Below, piece by piece: positions 4,310 through 12,642 of a stretch of DNA of 64,000 nucleotides. Under the pieces are notes generated by a model. The model made no database searches. It was not told where the DNA came from and saw only the letters and a list, made by a program, of their open reading frames with translations. The DNA is taken from contig WQYQ01000013.1 in NCBI GenBank assembly GCA_009781175.1, positions 13,581 to 77,580 of the forward strand, given 5' to 3'. This DNA comes from Betaproteobacteria bacterium (GTDB lineage Bacteria; Pseudomonadota; Gammaproteobacteria; Burkholderiales; Rhodocyclaceae). The position numbers were made by a program, and so were the translations under genes. Every line of letters starts with the position of its first letter. Within the stretch, counting starts at the first letter, position 1.

Positions 4310-5455
4310 TTATTTTAGCTTGCTTTTTACGAAATCCGCCAGTGCTGACGCCAAGTCGGTCTGCCGGCTCAAGCGCTCGCTCCAGTCTCGCGCATGCCGC
4401 GTCAGCTCGGGCAAGGCGGAGACGAGACGCGGCCATGATTGCGCAAAAACCGGCGCGGATTCTCCGGCCGGGTTCCAGTCGGCATGGAAACCGCATAGAG
4501 CCGCCGTTGTCATAGCGCTTAAGTTTTCGGCGTAGCGTTCAAGAAACGCGGCGAGTTTTTCGAGATGCGCCGCCTCGTCTTGACGATAAATCTGCCAGAT
4601 GAATGGGCTGCCTGCCCATTGCGCGCGCACGAAGGAATCCTCGCCGCGTACAAAATTCAGATCACAAGCCCAGAGCAATAGGTCGTAAGTGGTTTGCGCG
4701 AGAAAAGGCAGTGTTTGCAGCGTCAGCTGCCCGCGTTGTAAGGCTTTGCCGCCGGCCACGAGCGGCGCGTCCGCCCAAGCGCGCACTTGTTGCGAAACGA
4801 GCCCTTCGGGCGCGGCGCACCAGATCGGCGTCGCGCCGGCCGCCCAAATGTCGAGCAGCGCTGGCAGAGCGTCGGTCCGGTAGGCGAAGAGCGATAACTT
4901 CAGCGCGTTTGTTGGCGGCGCGGCAATCTTCAGGTCTTGCCAAAGCTTGCTGGGGCCGTCCGTGCCGAGAAAACCCCGGCGTCGTTCGAGCAAGCCCACC
5001 TCGCGCAAAAGCCCGCCGGTACGCGCGTTGAAACCGGGGTAGAAAAACCACTGCGTCAGAGGCAGACGCGGATGCGGCGAGGGCAGGGCATGACAGCCTT
5101 CGACCCAGGTTTCGGCCGACAGATATTCGAGGTTGATCCACACCGGCGGCCGCGTGCTGCGCGCCATTGCGGCGAGGTAAGACGCGGGCACTGGCGCGCC
5201 GAAGGCTTCGATGACGACTTCCGCGCAGTCCTCGGGCGCGTCTTCCGCATGCCAGGGCTGAATCGCGATGCTGCCCGGCGCATACGTGGTCTCGCCGGAG
5301 CGCAGCGCGGACAAGACGTCCGGCTTGTCTATCCAAAGCCGGACGTGGAATCCGTGCTCGTTTGCCAACTGCCGCGCTAAACGCCAGCAAACGCCTGCGT
5401 CGCCGAAGTTGTCGACGACCTTGCAGAAAATATCCCAGGTCAGCGGTGCGGCCAT
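4310..5455 (-). CDS. earP: EF-P arginine rhamnosyltransferase
   Basis: WDIFCKVVDNFGDAGVCWRLARQL, NLEYLSAE, FFYPGF, NFVRGEDSFVRAQWAG; directly upstream of efp. Confidence 0.95.
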   Translation of the reverse strand: MAAPLTWDIFCKVVDNFGDAGVCWRLARQLANEHGFHVRLWIDKPDVLSALRSGETTYAPGSIAIQPWHAEDAPEDCAEVVIEAFGAPVPASYLAAMARSTRPPVWINLEYLSAETWVEGCHALPSPHPRLPLTQWFFYPGFNARTGGLLREVGLLERRRGFLGTDGPSKLWQDLKIAAPPTNALKLSLFAYRTDALPALLDIWAAGATPIWCAAPEGLVSQQVRAWADAPLVAGGKALQRGQLTLQTLPFLAQTTYDLLLWACDLNFVRGEDSFVRAQWAGSPFIWQIYRQDEAAHLEKLAAFLERYAENLSAMTTAALCGFHADWNPAGESAPVFAQSWPRLVSALPELTRHARDWSERLSRQTDLASALADFVKSKLK

Positions 5456-5648
5456 GTGGAACAAATCCAGAAACGAGCCTTCGATTGTCGCAGACCCGCG
5501 TTGCCGTAGCGGCATGTTATACGTGATGAATACCGTGACGGCTTACCCGTGCGGATTTCGTTGTTGGATTAAGTTGGGTTTAAGCGCTGACGTGATAATA
5601 AGCAACAGTGCTACGTGCCCCGTTTTGGGTATTCCATCGGTATATCAA

Positions 5649-8600
5649 ATGAATCTGCCCGCCTCGCCCGCAATTTTCGCTAGTCCGCACGATATTTTGC
5701 TTGGCCCCGACCGGCCCGACCTAATCCGCAACGAAGTCCTCGCAGATTTGCTCGAAGCGACGGCCGCGCGCGTGCCGGAAAAAACGGCCTTGATTTTCGG
5801 CGAGTATTCGCTGACTTACGCTGAACTCGACGCGGCGGCTGGGCGCGTAGCGTCGCGCCTGATCGAAGCGGGCGTGCGGCCGGGGCAACTCGTCGGACTG
5901 TGGTTGCCGCGCGGCTTGCCGCTGCTCGTCATGCAGGCCGGCATCGCCAAAAGCGGCGCGGGCTGGCTGCCCTTTGATGCGGATACGCCGGTCGAGCGCA
6001 TCGGCATTTGCCTGGAGGACGCGGGCGCTGTCGGTATCGTCAGTTGCGCCGCCTTGGCCGATGCGCTGGCGCCGCTGGGGCGGACGGTGTGGTGTGCCGA
6101 GGCGCTGGACGCGCCGCTCGACGGGCCGCCGTGCCGGCGCGAAGGCGTATCGCCCGCGCATCCGGCCTATGTCATCTACACCTCCGGCTCGACGGGCAAG
6201 CCCAAGGGCATCGAAATCAATCAGGGCAGCATCTGCCACTTTCTGCGCAGCGAGAACGCGGTGCTCGGCGTGTGTGGGGACGACCGCGTGTATCAAGGTT
6301 TTTCGGTCGCCTTCGACATGTCTTTCGAAGAGATCTGGATCAGCTACCTCGTCGGCGCCACGCTCTGGATCGCGCCGAAGGAACTCGCGACCGACCCCGA
6401 AGCCCTGCCGCGCGCGCTTGCCGCCAACCATGTCAGCGTGCTGCATGCGGTGCCGACGCTGCTTGCGCTGTTCGCCGAAGATCCGCCGAACCTGCGTCTG
6501 ATCAACCTCGGCGGCGAGATGTGTCCTGAAGCGCTCGTCGAACGCTGGGCCAAACCCGGCCGGCAAATCTTCAATACCTACGGCCCGACTGAGGCGACCG
6601 TTTCGGCCAGCCTGGCCGAGTTGAAGGCCGGCGAGCCGGTGACGATCGGCACGCCGCTGCCGAATTACGGCCTGCTCGTTATCGACGACCAGCTACGTTT
6701 GCTGCCGCGCGGAGAAACGGGCGAGTTGTGCATTACCGGGCCGGGCGTCGCGGCGGGTTATCTCGGCCGTGCGGATCTGACGGCGGAAAAGTTTCTGCCG
6801 AATCCCTGGGCGCACGTCGGCTGGGACACGCGCATGTATCGCACCGGCGATCTCGCGCGCATCGATACCGATGGCCGGGTGCAATGCCTGGGCCGCGCCG
6901 ACGATCAGGTGAAAGTGCGCGGCTTCCGTGTCGAACTCGGCGAAATCGAAGCCGTTTTGGCGCGCCAGCCCGGTGTGGGTACATGTGCGGTTGTGCTGCG
7001 TGAGGACGAGGGCATTGACCACGAGTTGAGCGCAAGCCCCGCCATTGATGGCGGGGTCAGCGAAACAAGCGTTACTGGCGCCGAAGGCGCCCCCGATTCG
7101 TGGCGAGGAAGCCCCAAGCTTCAGCTTGGGGCGACTCACGAACTCGTCGCCTTCATCGTCCCCGAAGCGGATGCCCTGCTTTCGGGCAGCGAACTGCGTC
7201 GGCACCTGGCAGAAGTTCTGCCGCCTTATATGGTGCCGGGGCGTTTCGAAACGCTTGCGCTGCTTCCGCGTTTGACTTCGGGCAAGATCGATCGGAAGGC
7301 GCTGCGCGCCATGCCGCTTGCAGCGCCGCAAGCGCCCGCGGGTGAATCCGACGTGGCGCAGAATCCGGTCGAGGAAACACTCTTCGCCGCATTGGCCCGG
7401 CTTTTCCCCGGCCAGCCGATCCGGCGCGAGGCGGATTTCTTCTCCGACCTCGGCGGCCATTCGCTGCTTGCCGCGCGGCTCGCGTCCGCCTTGCGCGAAG
7501 ATCCGCGCTTTGCCTCGCTGACGGTGCGCGACATCTATCAAACGCGCCGTATTGGGGCGATCGCGCAAGTATTGGTGCACGCGGCAGCGGCAAAACATGT
7601 CGTTCCCGATGCGGATTTCGCGCCGCCGCCGGCGCTGCGCCGCTGGCTGTGCGGTCTGGCGCAATTGCTCGCGGTGCCGCCGCTCGTCGCGCTCTACATG
7701 ATTCAATGGCTCGCGCCGTTCTTCACTTATCACTTCTATACCGGCGAGCCGGGCGATTCGATTCCGCTCGCGATCGGCATGTCGGCGCTGGTGTTCTGGA
7801 TCGCCACGCAGCTTGGCTTCGTCGTCGCGATTATCGGCAAGCGTCTGATTGCACCGAAGCTCAAACCGGGACGTTATCCGCTTTGGGGTGTGACTTACTA
7901 TCGCTGGTGGCTTGCGGACCGCCTCATTGAAGCCGCGCCGAACTATCTGATCGCGGGTTCTTCGCTGTTCGTCTGGTATCTGCGCGCGCTGGGCGCCAAG
8001 ATCGGCCGCGATGTGCAGATCGGCTCGATCACGCTGCGCGCGCCCGAATTGCTGAGCCTGGGCGACGGCGTGAGCATTGGCACGGCGGTCAACTTCGAGA
8101 ACGCGCGCGTCGAACGCGGCCAGCTTGTGCTCGGGCGCATCGAACTTGCACATAACGCGTGTGTGGGCTCTTACGCGGTTGTCGAAGGCAATACCTCGAT
8201 CGGCGAATTCGGCCACCTCGAAGGGCTATCGGCGTTGACCGACGGCGAACATCTGCCGGCGCATCGCGTCTGGAGCGGCTCTCCCGCGCGCGATGTTGGC
8301 GCCTTCGATCCGACCAGCCTGCCGCCGCGCCCGCAGCCGGGCAAATTGCGGCGTGGCGCGGAAAACCTGTGTTTCACCCTCGGCGCGATGCTGGTTTCGA
8401 TTCTGTTCTTCCTGCCGGTTTTCCCGGCTTTCATGCTGATCGACAGCCTTGACGATCTGGATGGTTTCCAATGGGCGCATAGCACCGCAGATATGGTTAC
8501 GGATCTGATGCGGGTCGGGAAATATTTCGTACTCGCCCTGCCCGCCAGTGCCTTGCTGGTTATCTGCACCGCCTTGCTCGCGGCGCTGATCCGCTGGAGT

Positions 8601-9794
8601 TTTATGCCGCGCCTGCGCGCGGGGCGCTTCCCCGTGCATGGTTGGACGTATGTATCCAAATGGCTCGTCAACCAGATTCAGGAAACCAGCCTCCAGTTTT
8701 TGCATGGCGTTTATGCCACGATTTATGCGCCGGTCTGGTATCGCCTGCTCGGCGCCAAGGTGGGCCGCGGCGCGGAGATTTCCACGGCCTTGGGCGTAGT
8801 GCCCGACATGCTGACGCTCGGTGAGGAGAGTTTTATTGCCGACGCAGTGCTGCTTGGCGACGAGGAAATCGATGGCGGCTGGATGACGGTGCGGCCGACA
8901 GTTGTTTCGCGCCGCAGTTTCATTGGTAACGGCGCCTATGTGCCCGATGGCACCGTGGTGCCTGAAAACGTGCTGATCGGCGTGCAGTCGCGCGCGCCGG
9001 CGAATGCCGCCATGCAAAGCGGCGATACCTGGCTCGGTTCGCCGCCGCTCAACCTGCCCGCGCGCGAGGCGCTGGCCGGATTCCCCGAGCATCTGACCTT
9101 CCGTCCGTCGCTGCCGCGGCGTATCGGGCGTGGCTTGGTCGAAGCCTTGCGTATCGTTGCGCCGCACGCGCTGGTGATTGCCGTGGGCTACACCGTCATC
9201 ATGGCGCTGATGCCGGCGGCCGCCCGCGGGGATTGGCTGACCGTTTGTGTCGGTCTGGCCGTGGCCGGTTTGCTCTATGGGGTCGGGGCGTTCCTCTTCG
9301 TCGTGGCACTGAAATGGCCGCTCGTCGGGCGTTATCGTCAGCGCTCCAGTCCCATGTGGACGCCTTTCGTATGGCTCTCCGAGGCCGTGACCAACCTCTA
9401 CGAAGGTATTGCCGTGCCCAACTTCCTGCGCTATCTGCGCGGAACGCCGTGGCTGCCGGTCGCATTGCGGATGCTGGGGGCGAAAATCGGTCACGGAGTC
9501 TATCTCGATACGACCGACATGACCGAATACGACTGTGTCAGCATTGGTGACCATTGCGAAGTCAATGCACTGGCGGGACCGCAAACGCATCTGTTCGAAG
9601 ATCGTGTGATGAAGATCGACCGGGTCAACATCGGCAGCAAGGTCACGCTCGGCGCGCGCAACACCGTGCTCTACGGTGCTTCGATCGGCGATGGTGTGCG
9701 GACCGGTCCGCTCACGCTTGTCATGAAAGGTGAAAAACTGCCGCCTGCAAGCGCCTGGGCAGGCTGCCCCGCAGCGCCGATGCATGCAGACTAA
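5649..9794 (+). CDS. Pls/PosA-family membrane-bound NRPS-like homopoly(amino acid) synthetase (A-T-TM/left-handed beta-helix domains)
   Basis: A-domain motifs YTSGSTGKPKG, FDMSFEE, NTYGPTEATV, YRTGDL, GRADDQVKVRGFRVELGEIE; T-domain DFFSDLGGHSL; three hexapeptide-like domains (LGAKIG...) separated by TM segments; no C or TE domain. Start set at ATG 5649. Confidence 0.92.
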   Translation: MNLPASPAIFASPHDILLGPDRPDLIRNEVLADLLEATAARVPEKTALIFGEYSLTYAELDAAAGRVASRLIEAGVRPGQLVGLWLPRGLPLLVMQAGIAKSGAGWLPFDADTPVERIGICLEDAGAVGIVSCAALADALAPLGRTVWCAEALDAPLDGPPCRREGVSPAHPAYVIYTSGSTGKPKGIEINQGSICHFLRSENAVLGVCGDDRVYQGFSVAFDMSFEEIWISYLVGATLWIAPKELATDPEALPRALAANHVSVLHAVPTLLALFAEDPPNLRLINLGGEMCPEALVERWAKPGRQIFNTYGPTEATVSASLAELKAGEPVTIGTPLPNYGLLVIDDQLRLLPRGETGELCITGPGVAAGYLGRADLTAEKFLPNPWAHVGWDTRMYRTGDLARIDTDGRVQCLGRADDQVKVRGFRVELGEIEAVLARQPGVGTCAVVLREDEGIDHELSASPAIDGGVSETSVTGAEGAPDSWRGSPKLQLGATHELVAFIVPEADALLSGSELRRHLAEVLPPYMVPGRFETLALLPRLTSGKIDRKALRAMPLAAPQAPAGESDVAQNPVEETLFAALARLFPGQPIRREADFFSDLGGHSLLAARLASALREDPRFASLTVRDIYQTRRIGAIAQVLVHAAAAKHVVPDADFAPPPALRRWLCGLAQLLAVPPLVALYMIQWLAPFFTYHFYTGEPGDSIPLAIGMSALVFWIATQLGFVVAIIGKRLIAPKLKPGRYPLWGVTYYRWWLADRLIEAAPNYLIAGSSLFVWYLRALGAKIGRDVQIGSITLRAPELLSLGDGVSIGTAVNFENARVERGQLVLGRIELAHNACVGSYAVVEGNTSIGEFGHLEGLSALTDGEHLPAHRVWSGSPARDVGAFDPTSLPPRPQPGKLRRGAENLCFTLGAMLVSILFFLPVFPAFMLIDSLDDLDGFQWAHSTADMVTDLMRVGKYFVLALPASALLVICTALLAALIRWSFMPRLRAGRFPVHGWTYVSKWLVNQIQETSLQFLHGVYATIYAPVWYRLLGAKVGRGAEISTALGVVPDMLTLGEESFIADAVLLGDEEIDGGWMTVRPTVVSRRSFIGNGAYVPDGTVVPENVLIGVQSRAPANAAMQSGDTWLGSPPLNLPAREALAGFPEHLTFRPSLPRRIGRGLVEALRIVAPHALVIAVGYTVIMALMPAAARGDWLTVCVGLAVAGLLYGVGAFLFVVALKWPLVGRYRQRSSPMWTPFVWLSEAVTNLYEGIAVPNFLRYLRGTPWLPVALRMLGAKIGHGVYLDTTDMTEYDCVSIGDHCEVNALAGPQTHLFEDRVMKIDRVNIGSKVTLGARNTVLYGASIGDGVRTGPLTLVMKGEKLPPASAWAGCPAAPMHAD
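7020..7139 (+). mobile_element. 120-bp non-autonomous IS200/IS605-type element inserted in frame in the NRPS A domain
   Basis: TGAC target (7016-7019); left guide CAAG + hairpin CCCCGCCAT-TG-ATGGCGGGG; right guide GAAG + hairpin CCCCAAGCT-TC-AGCTTGGGG; ends in TCAC; removal restores G-I-D-E-L-V-A-F. Confidence 0.8.
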
Positions 9795-10470
9795 AGCGTT
9801 GCATATCTCCGCGTTACCGATCGAATTATCGGCTGACAAACCTGTCGTCCTCGCCGTGGAAACGTCGGACACGACGCTGCGCCCGGTTGCGCGTGAGCGC
9901 GTGCGGCAGGTTCTGCGCGCCTTGCTCGCGCCGAACCTGGGCTGTAGCGCGGAAGATGTTCCATTGCATTGTGCACCGGGCTCCCCGCCGCAGCTTGTCG
10001 TGAATCGCAGAAAAATTCATACTTTGTCGACTTCGCCTTGCCGTACTACTTGTACTGTTTGCGGCTCGTCTTCGCGTCTGAATTCCTCTGCGATTCACTC
10101 TACTAATAGTGCGTCCGAACCGCGCATCGGACTTGGCATTGCACATGAAGCCGGTCTGTCCCTTGTCGCGGCGTTTCCCAATGGCCGCGTCGGCGTGGAT
10201 TTGATGCGCATCGACGCGCTGCCGGACTGGTTTAGCGTAGCGCGCGATTATCTCGGGCCGGACGCGACGCGCAGGCTTGGGCGGGTCGATCAAGCGCAGC
10301 GGCCCACCGCTTTCGCCGCCGTGTGGACGCAACTGGAGGCCGTGCTCAAATGTCACGGTTTACCGCTCACGGAATGGTCACCGCACATGGCTGCGCTGCT
10401 AAAGTCGACGCCAAGCCAGCCCTTGGCCTTACCGGCGCCTTATATTGGGCATATCGCCTGGTTGCGGTAG
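9784..10470 (+). CDS. Sfp-type 4'-phosphopantetheinyl transferase
   Basis: Overlaps the NRPS stop; [28 protein letters not shown]. Confidence 0.85.
9996..10102. mobile_element. Correia-like MITE inserted in frame in the PPTase
   Basis: Inverted repeats at 10000-10019 and 10079-10098 (18/20 match) enclosing CTTCGCCTTGCCGTACTACTTGTACTGTTTGCGGCT; ends ...CACTCTA; adds about 35 atypical codons. Confidence 0.65.
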
Positions 10471-10507
10471 GCGCATAGCATCTCAAAACACCAAAGAACG
10501 AAGAAGC

Positions 10508-11100
10508 ATGGAGTTCGATTACGTCATCGTCGGCGGCGGTTCGGCGGGCTGTGTGCTCGCCAATCGTTTATCCGAAGACGCTGCGGTGACGGTATGCCTG
10601 CTCGAAGCAGGACCGCAAGACAGCAACCCACTGATTCGGATTCCGTTTGCCACCCTATGGATGATGCGCAGCGCGGCGCTCAATTGGAATTACCGTACCG
10701 CCCCCGAACCAGCCCTGCATGGCCGCCGTTTGTTCTGGCCGCGCCCGCTTTCGACGCCTATCGCGGCCGCGAACTTATTCCGGGCTCGCAACTTCAAAAT
10801 GAAGATGAAATTCGCGCTTTCATTCGAAAGCATGCGGAAACGATTTATCACCCGGCGGGGACCTGCCGCATGGGAACTGATGCGCTTGCCGTCGTGGACC
10901 CCGAATTGTGCGTACGTGGCATCGAAGGCTTACGCGTTGTCGATGCCTCGGTTATGCCGACATTGATTGGTGGGAATACGCATGCGCCGGTCATCATGAT
11001 TGCCGAAAAAGCGTCAGATCTTGTGAGGGCCGCGCAAAGGAAAATGGGAAGCAAACGTTCCGCTGCGATTTTAAGTGCCCCGTCTCGGTGCGCTTTTTAA
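10508..11100 (+). pseudogene. GMC (choline dehydrogenase-like) oxidoreductase with a large internal deletion and frameshift
   Basis: N-terminal [22 protein letters not shown]...LFWPR joined out of frame near 10745 to C-terminal PAFDAYRG...[12 protein letters not shown]...VVDASVMP...GNTHAPVIMIAEKA. Confidence 0.88.
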
Positions 11101-12440: not shown

Positions 12441-12484
12441 ATTCGTGGCGAAGAAGCCCCAAGCTTCAGCTTGAGGCGATTCAC
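12441..12484 (+). mobile_element. Solo IS200/IS605-type right end (44 bp)
   Basis: 41/44 identical to 7096-7139; preceded by TGAC (12437-12440) and ends in TCAC. Confidence 0.75.
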
Positions 12485-12530: not shown

Positions 12531-12540
12531 TTTTCGGTGT

Positions 12541-12642
12541 TATTCCTTCTATATCAATCGATTACTTTGTCGGTTTCGCTTGCCGTGTTATAGCGCTGTC
12601 TGCGCTTCGTCTTCGCGTACTCGATTGAATATAGAAACGAAT
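12541..12642. mobile_element. MITE copy A (TTCTATATCAATCGA termini, Correia-like core)
   Basis: About 92-bp match to 15829-15921 with 7 mismatches and 1 indel; terminal inverted repeats. Confidence 0.75.

Follow-up and report, generated by a model that had tools for sequence, protein, structure and literature searches.

The gene for an Sfp-type 4'-phosphopantetheinyl transferase (PPTase) in the window, which denotes here the whole 64,000-nt stretch of DNA that was analysed, contains a hairpin-forming element of 107 nt. We regard it, with a probability of roughly 80%, as a TA-flanked MITE of the Correia kind, carried as a passenger in a reading frame that stayed open by chance and in an enzyme that likely tolerates it. 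In the proposed course of events, a non-autonomous hairpin MITE would have transposed into a TA within the PPTase gene, where the pre-insertion sequence would have read ...CAG CTT ACT AAT... (Q-L-T-N), presumably by a TA-duplicating cut-and-paste mechanism. The ORF would have remained open because exactly 105 nt were added and the strand and frame entered have no stop codon. The 35 Ser/Thr/Cys/Arg-rich residues gained in this way would sit in a length-variable surface loop between the motifs P-G-x-x-P and (S/A)-x-(S/A)-H-E, and the element would be a passenger, not an adaptation. As judged from the sequence comparisons, this in-frame MITE insertion in a PPTase is known from this assembly alone.

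The window covers positions 13581-77580 of contig C13 (99.9 kb; k141_424852 of ENA ERZ27257292) in a MAG obtained by short-read k141 assembly, which comprises 3.32 Mb in 44 contigs with 59.6% GC and a completeness of 94.7%. Positions outside the window are given as contig:coordinate. The PPTase gene follows a synthetase gene, whose stop codon is overlapped by the PPTase ATG by 11 nt, and the resulting synthetase-PPTase operon spans 5.2 kb. The features of the operon are:

5268-9794, + strand: A-T-hexapeptide-repeat (LbH; Pls/PosA-like) synthetase of 1508 aa, with the Pfam domains AMP-binding, AMP-binding_C, PP-binding and Hexapep
7012-7140, + strand: unrelated in-frame mini-element in the synthetase, between motifs A8 and A9 (blastn, translation)
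9784-10470, + strand: PPTase ORF, Sfp-type 4'-phosphopantetheinyl transferase of 228 aa (Pfam, NCBIfam, AlphaFold, Foldseek)
9996-10102, + strand: copy of the Correia-type MITE, 107 nt with the decayed TA flanks on either side counted in (alignment of copies, absence from orthologues)
9996-9999, + strand: left terminus TGTC, TATA in the consensus; the presumed target TA has decayed to TG (alignment of seven copies)
10000-10022, + strand: left inverted arm GTGAATCGCAGAAAAATTCATAC (inverted-repeat pair)
10040-10063, + strand: 24-nt core GCCGTACTACTTGTACTGTTTGCG at the hairpin tip, with a GTAC-TACTT-GTAC cap (match to Neisseria Correia elements, folding)
10076-10098, + strand: right inverted arm GTCTGAATTCCTCTGCGATTCAC (inverted-repeat pair)
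10099-10102, + strand: right terminus TCTA, TATA in the consensus; the presumably duplicated TA of the target remains at 10101-10102 (alignment of seven copies)

Divergent from the operon lies earP, the gene of the EF-P rhamnosyltransferase, at 4310-5515 on the minus strand. The listed earP and synthetase ORFs overlap at their 5' ends, so that one of the two starts is probably located further in.

The element reads TGTC-GTGAATCGCAGAAAAATTCATAC...GTCTGAATTCCTCTGCGATTCAC-TCTA. Its arms of 23 nt are complementary at 20/23 positions (87%) and enclose 53 nt, which slightly extends the 20-bp repeats with 18 matches that had been described in a sequence-only reading of this DNA. The motif GTGAATCGCAGARRAATTC is matched by both arms, and two or more matches were obtained in 0/100 shuffles. 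The core quoted in that reading, CTTCGCCTTGCCGTACTACTTGTACTGTTTGCGGCT, has a single occurrence at 10031-10066, with 0 expected in shuffles. When folded as RNA, positions 9996-10102 reached -38.4 kcal/mol (z = -6.7). An Rfam scan of 9000-11000 at E ≤ 1 returned 0 RNA families, and a consensus scan of 9600-10600 for promoters and terminators returned none in or beside the element, with no sigma-70-like promoter predicted.

The net insertion in the PPTase amounts to 105 nt, or 35 codons, and forms residues 72-106 in frame with the ORF; the earlier estimate of about 35 additional codons was therefore accurate. In the PPTase orthologues of nine related genomes, the aligned parts corresponded to query residues 4-73 and 112-227, with nothing equivalent to the stretch between. 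Residues 72-106 were likewise found in 0/23 homologues (166-251 aa) from a search of 5.8 billion proteins, so that the alignment of orthologues which had been proposed as a check showed the insert to be absent from every sequence compared. The 228-aa form itself was found once in these 5.8 billion proteins, on one contig. After removal of 105 nt the flanks join as ...PGSPPQL(T/A)..., as had been foreseen, and this insert-free version matches the orthologue pattern PGxAPRLxxxxxxIGLxIxHE. The reconstructed join of the empty site before insertion is ...CAGCTTACTAAT..., in which we infer the TA in CTT|ACT to be the target. An exact scan of metagenomes for the left flank GCACCGGGCTCCCCGCCGCAGCTT, which would detect other strains whether they carry the insert or not, gave 0 matches.

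Maintenance of the reading frame calls for no particular explanation. The consensus of the repeat family described below is free of stop codons in 2/6 combinations of strand and frame, one of which is used in the PPTase, and the frame stayed open in 64% of trials after 10 random substitutions. With a unit of 105 nt, about one third of the hits in genes would thus stay open by chance; since chance suffices for an open frame, selection for the frame need not be invoked. The sequence-only reading had pointed out that two unrelated MITEs were tolerated in frame in adjacent genes, and had concluded that either selection to keep the pathway working or relaxed selection with survival of the frame by chance was responsible. 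The other element is indeed present: the sequence at 7012-7140 in the synthetase gene is unrelated to the PPTase element and belongs to a repeat type of about 125 nt with more than 100 genome copies (blastn), a half copy of which lies at 12441-12484. From the proposed pair of causes, chance survival of the frame was upheld as sufficient alone, and selection could be dispensed with; long-standing relaxed selection is argued against by the intact conserved residues of the enzyme.

The PPTase contains an ACPS domain (PF01648) at residues 135-203 with an E-value of 1.5e-8, above the Pfam cut-off, and gave weak matches to the NCBIfam models HetI and AcpT. An AlphaFold2 model based on an alignment of 24 sequences reached a pLDDT of 84.9 and a pTM of 0.81, with 150 residues at a pLDDT of at least 90 and residues 81-83 and 85-108 below 50. 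Foldseek searches with this model retrieved Sfp (4mrt_A) as best match, and also Sfp 1qr0 and the human AASDHPPT (2c43, 2cg5). The insert is thus predicted to form a disordered loop between two strands, with the Sfp fold left intact. The protein combines an ACPS-superfamily domain and the pseudo-dimeric Sfp fold with the (S/A)H, GxD and WxxxE(A/S)xxK motifs of Sfp-type PPTases, which are present as IAHE, GVDL and WTQLEAVLK. It deviates at 0/46 of the columns that are conserved to at least 90% in the 23 homologues and is in this respect as good as the best of them.

The insert follows the PGxxP motif and precedes the (S/A)x(S/A)HE motif. Here the sequences of four homologues (P0008, P0010, P0015 and P0016) are longer by 1-3 residues, and the human AASDHPPT has an insertion of 4 residues at the equivalent point of a profile alignment. 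According to these alignments, the insertion site is a natural, length-variable indel hotspot among PPTases. The two motifs that flank the insert presumably contact coenzyme A, as in Sfp, and some functional cost of the insert is therefore possible.

The neighbouring synthetase has kept motif A8 (VKVRGFRVELGEIE), A9 (LPPYMVP), A10 (SGKIDRKAL) and the carrier serine motif FFSDLGGHSL despite the in-frame mini-element at 7012-7140. The assembly encodes one further PPTase, an ORF of AcpS size on contig C22, and only three PP-binding domains, from which the PPTase looks dedicated to the synthetase next to it; the carrier domain of the latter is its presumed substrate. Based on the conserved residues, the structural model, the variable length of the insertion site, the intact motifs of the synthetase and the apparent dedication of the PPTase to it, we favour the view that the loop is tolerated over the view that the gene is dead. 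Whether the 228-aa PPTase has also remained active on the carrier domain of the adjacent synthetase is a narrower question, to which a positive answer seems on balance somewhat the better supposition.

In the opposite case the insertion would have killed the enzyme, and the PPTase with its synthetase pathway would be a young pseudogene under relaxed selection with a frame that is still open. This would fit the presence of two independent mini-elements in one 5.2-kb operon, as expected of a pathway that is being lost, and the position of the insert between two cofactor-binding motifs, where 35 residues could disturb cofactor binding. With so strong a hairpin in the mRNA, expression could be blocked, and an open frame would be nothing unusual in a dead gene, given the calculated chances of one third at insertion and of 64% after 10 substitutions. 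We nevertheless consider the loss of the enzyme unlikely. None of the 46 conserved columns deviates, the synthetase retains all of its motifs over 1508 open codons, and the insert occupies an indel hotspot, where it was modelled as a free loop beside an intact fold. Furthermore, the enzyme is the only Sfp-type PPTase in a genome that is 95% complete.

A tolerated insert may still have consequences at the RNA level. Correia hairpins in Neisseria transcripts are cut by RNase III (PMC10969869, PMC2649163), and by analogy the hairpin of -38 kcal/mol in the PPTase mRNA, being of this type, may be cut as well and may lower the yield of the enzyme.

The PPTase copy belongs to a repeat family with seven full-length copies in the genome. 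The six others, at C6:120231, C15:9036, C3:71889, C20:11241, C14:74913 and C2:42528, are 78-92% identical to it and end in TATAGTGAATCGCA...TGCGATTCACTATA. The family consensus of 107 nt starts with TATAGTGAATCGCATAAGAATTTATAC and ends with GTCTAAATTCTTATGCGATTCACTATA, that is, in TATAGTG...CACTATA. With both TAs counted, the copies have a length of 107 nt in 6/7 cases and of 106 nt in the remaining one; TA flanks occur on both sides in 3/7 copies and on one side in the rest, the PPTase copy being flanked by TG...TA. Six of the seven copies are intergenic, among them the C20 copy directly upstream of a fadB-like start, and the PPTase copy is the only genic one. Genic positions were also considered for the C6, C14 and C3 copies and were rejected, the crossing frames being Arg/Ala-rich nonsense of GC-rich DNA. 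The family thus has the properties of a MITE: the elements are small and non-coding, have terminal inverted repeats, occur in dispersed copies and are absent from orthologous sites.

Compared with the consensus of the six other copies, the PPTase copy is identical at 97/107 positions and has 10 private differences. Three of these fall in the terminal tetranucleotides; as both TATA motifs are mutated (TGTC, TCTA), the copy is probably immobile. Four others compensate each other pairwise across the arms, at columns 15/93 and 23/85, and may therefore predate the insertion. Among the seven copies, compensatory double changes were found at 6/40 stem pairs, for which reason the complementarity of the arms, rather than their sequence, seems to be maintained. 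Co-variation of the arms was seen, for example, in the variants CACAAG/CTTGTG, CATAAG/CTTATG and CCTAGG/CCTAGG. Arms of the PPTase type were present in 2/401 genomes from 89 genera of the host's family, with 13 matches in the host genome and 2 decayed matches in one other genome; this arm type is nearly private to the host genome.

No cognate transposase of the family was found in the assembly. It contains two matches of the IS4/IS5 type and one ORF for a transposase of the IS630 family (C8:60456-61511; 351 codons). The IS630 family is of the TA-duplicating type. The ORF was rejected as partner of the MITE, since its ends TATTGACCAGGCAATTAAGGGTT are unlike the MITE arms, and the MITE arm motif did not occur within 1.5 kb of it. 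It is part of an apparently intact IS630-family insertion sequence at C8:60404-61525, with ends of 23 nt (TATTGACC(A/C)GGCAATTAAGGGTT) and TA flanks.

Correia elements (CREE) are characterized by a 26-bp inverted Correia repeat, a characteristic core and a target duplication, have a length of 104-108 or 153-157 bp and are without a known mobilising enzyme (PMC2649163, PMC9778887, PMC5039591). The operational test for CREE allows at most 3 mismatches to one of four repeat variants of 28/29 nt (PMC5039591, PMC9778887). Over the entire 107 nt, the family consensus was 69-71% identical to seven Correia elements from Neisseria, Kingella and Eikenella, with 1-2 gap columns per sequence. The 35-nt Correia core, which reads CTCGCCTTGCCGTACTATTTGTACTGTCTGCGGCT in N. 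sicca, Neisseria sp. CP9 and N. polysaccharea, was matched by the consensus at 33/35 and by the PPTase copy at 32/35 positions, and its 24-nt portion GCCGTACTAYTTGTACTGTYTGCG was matched exactly. The close resemblance to the Neisseria Correia core that the sequence-only reading had stated is borne out by the Neisseria loci, and its short Correia element of about 105 bp falls within the published range. Against the 28/29-nt repeats, in contrast, the consensus showed 12-16 and the PPTase copy 14-18 mismatches. Agreement with the Correia repeat is limited to the first 10 nt (TATAGTGAAT), and positions 11-28 are unrelated.

The host also differs from the genus Neisseria, to which the reviews assign CREE. 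Its TolB was 61% identical to that of an Accumulibacter MAG, the nearest among the named genomes compared, and 47% identical to those of Vogesella, Crenobacter and 'Neisseriaceae bacterium JH1-16'; TolB matches at E ≤ 1e-30 were absent from the tested genomes of Neisseria, Kingella, Eikenella and Bergeriella. The nearest relative available, with a TolB identity of 87%, is a different species. In a k-mer check for DNA uptake sequences, the host genome showed no over-represented 12-mer resembling a DUS. By these comparisons, the host is a non-Neisseriaceae betaproteobacterium far from genomes of the Neisseriaceae and Chromobacteriaceae type. Given the outcome of the repeat test and the non-Neisseriaceae host, the element is to be called a Correia relative and not a strict CREE. 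The resemblance that had been proposed from the sequence alone therefore holds for the ends, the core, the length and the overall identity, but does not extend along the Correia repeat beyond its first 10 nt.

In several respects the family resembles the short CREE, or nemis. All seven copies (106-107 nt) fall into the length class of 104-108 bp, the termini are TATAG...CTATA with TA flanks on one or both sides, and the ends TATAGTGAAT...ATTCACTATA as well as the subterminal GTAC are conserved; the repeat start TATAGTGAAT is a variant common to the family, N. polysaccharea, Kingella and Eikenella. Both form a long hairpin, are located upstream of genes and occasionally inside them, and encode no transposase. 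Unlike CREE, which number 120-250, the family has seven copies, neither a long form of 153-157 bp nor an IHF site was seen, and the core is flanked by sequence of the Accumulibacter-repeat type. Outward promoters are a further feature of CREE, and none of the sigma-70 type was predicted at the PPTase copy. On sequence grounds, we place the element in a sister subfamily of Correia that resides in a non-Neisseriaceae host.

The likeness to Correia might instead be convergent, or reflect a host site captured by both, in which case the MITE family would be unrelated. The unmatched 26-bp Correia repeat, the Accumulibacter-type sequence around the core (90-94% identity over nt 27-88) and the occurrence of the core between quite different arms in other lineages are compatible with this. 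Convergence would, however, have to produce a nearly gap-free alignment over the whole element with each of seven Correia elements, an equal length, identical first and last 10 nt, the subterminal GTAC, the shared core and a common hairpin architecture with the core at the tip; we judge it to be very improbable.

An artefact, in which metagenome assembly or binning placed a repeat copy wrongly in the PPTase gene, comes to mind for a short-read k141 MAG with hundreds of short repeats, but is hardly credible: the copy is unique in its 10 private differences with no other copy more than 92% identical, the element is shorter than the assembler k-mer, both flanks continue the same gene and frame within the 99.9-kb contig, and a mis-join would not give the kind of decay seen at the termini. 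Equally hard to credit is domestication of the insert as a Cys-rich loop (C-x4-C-x2-C) kept for metal binding, regulation or partner recognition, which the open frame, the three cysteines and the otherwise intact enzyme might suggest, as intergenic copies such as that on C6 encode the same peptide and the cysteines thus derive from the element consensus, while the loop is predicted to be disordered and the insert occurs in one genome only, with nothing similar in the homologues.

The Correia-type core is not confined to the family of the PPTase element. A scan with the core GCCGTACTAYTTGTACTGTYTGCG, in which each prokaryotic species was represented by one genome, gave among the matches listed exact occurrences in hairpin repeats from at least 15 genera (loci L051-L169). 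The hosts listed comprise Bergeriella, Cardiobacterium, Avibacterium, Crenobacter, Vogesella, Chitiniphilus, Ralstonia, Cupriavidus, Accumulibacter, Nitrosomonadaceae, Alcaligenaceae and Mycoavidus, together with the Correia elements of Kingella, Eikenella and many species of Neisseria. These core-sharing hairpins are 105-120 nt long, and their arms are wholly different between lineages (TTATTCCATTTCCAG..., TAAGAGCCGCTAACAAAACC...). All representatives folded (8/8) formed singly one long hairpin with an apical core and a GTAC-N5-GTAC cap, at z-scores of -3.4 to -10. In an Accumulibacter MAG, at least 40 copies combine other arms with a 62-nt interior whose identity to that of the PPTase element (nt 27-88) is 90-94%. 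Ordinary MITEs have conserved ends and a drifting interior; the core-bearing repeats show the reverse, a constant core with varying arms.

Three arm types surround the one core in the host genome. One further family has a copy in the window:

12539-12642, + strand: copy of a second core-bearing family with different arms, about 100 nt long and with about 20 genome copies (blastn)

Its arms and interior resemble the Accumulibacter repeats. The similarity of the PPTase element to another copy in the window, which had been put forward as a point to verify, was found here, as 12563-12618 and nt 25-82 of the element share 79% identity. Another arm type, AAGAGCCGCTAATAAAACCC...GGGTTTTATTAGCGGCTC, was observed around the core at C11:21763, C10:93034 and C1:128583, and is the same as in Ralstonia, Cupriavidus, Crenobacter and Vogesella. 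In a related genome (G024:C2:2309450-2309957), six core-bearing units are arranged in tandem with a spacing of 90 nt, which is an array and not a dispersed repeat.

A literature search on the core sequence, and on Correia elements in other betaproteobacterial genera, yielded nothing relevant, and we know of no published name for the core-sharing hairpins of Accumulibacter, Ralstonia, Cupriavidus and Crenobacter. We tentatively propose, as an idea that may well prove wrong, that Correia is one branch of a wider, undescribed superfamily of hairpins of 105-120 nt with a functional apical core, occurring in the Betaproteobacteria and, in a few instances, in Cardiobacterium and Avibacterium. In such a superfamily, an invariant core of 24-35 nt (GCCGTACTAYTTGTACTGTCTGCG, with the GTAC-N5-GTAC cap) would be conserved in place of the terminal repeats, and the arms could take any sequence, provided that they remain complementary. 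The core could serve as the handle of a mobilising enzyme or of a host factor, and the PPTase copy would combine, as a chimera, tips like those of Correia with an interior of the Accumulibacter type. What moves Correia elements has, to our knowledge, been an open question since 1986. If the superfamily exists, an intersection of the gene contents of core-bearing genomes could identify the Correia mobiliser, and if the core is constrained, comparative genomics across the hosts would offer a new handle on Correia-type mobilisation, the mechanism of which was never determined (PMC2649163).

Apart from this proposal, the length, tips and core of Correia are now seen in a free-living betaproteobacterium outside the Neisseriaceae, which shows the Correia family to extend well past Neisseria. 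For annotation, the ORF 9784-10470 should be neither called a pseudogene nor split, and it lends itself, as a natural experiment, to testing how well Sfp-type PPTases tolerate loops.

In-frame fusions with MITEs are a known phenomenon (PMC10969869, PMC3184786). The PPTase element shares with the Rickettsia palindromic elements (RPE), ERIC, BOX/RUP and QMITE the in-frame location of a palindromic mini-element in a housekeeping or metabolic gene and, with RPE and other MITE fusions, a hydrophilic surface loop of 35-50 residues that is compatible with the fold (PMC10969869; PMC3184786). RPE enter genes in this way at high frequency, nearly half of their copies lying in ORFs, compared to 1/7 copies in the family described here. 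There is no sequence relationship of the PPTase element to RPE or to the other in-frame MITEs (ERIC, BOX/RUP, QMITE). As in-frame MITE loops are well known, the insertion event itself is ordinary, and the PPTase would be another case of a palindromic mini-element absorbed as a surface loop of an enzyme.
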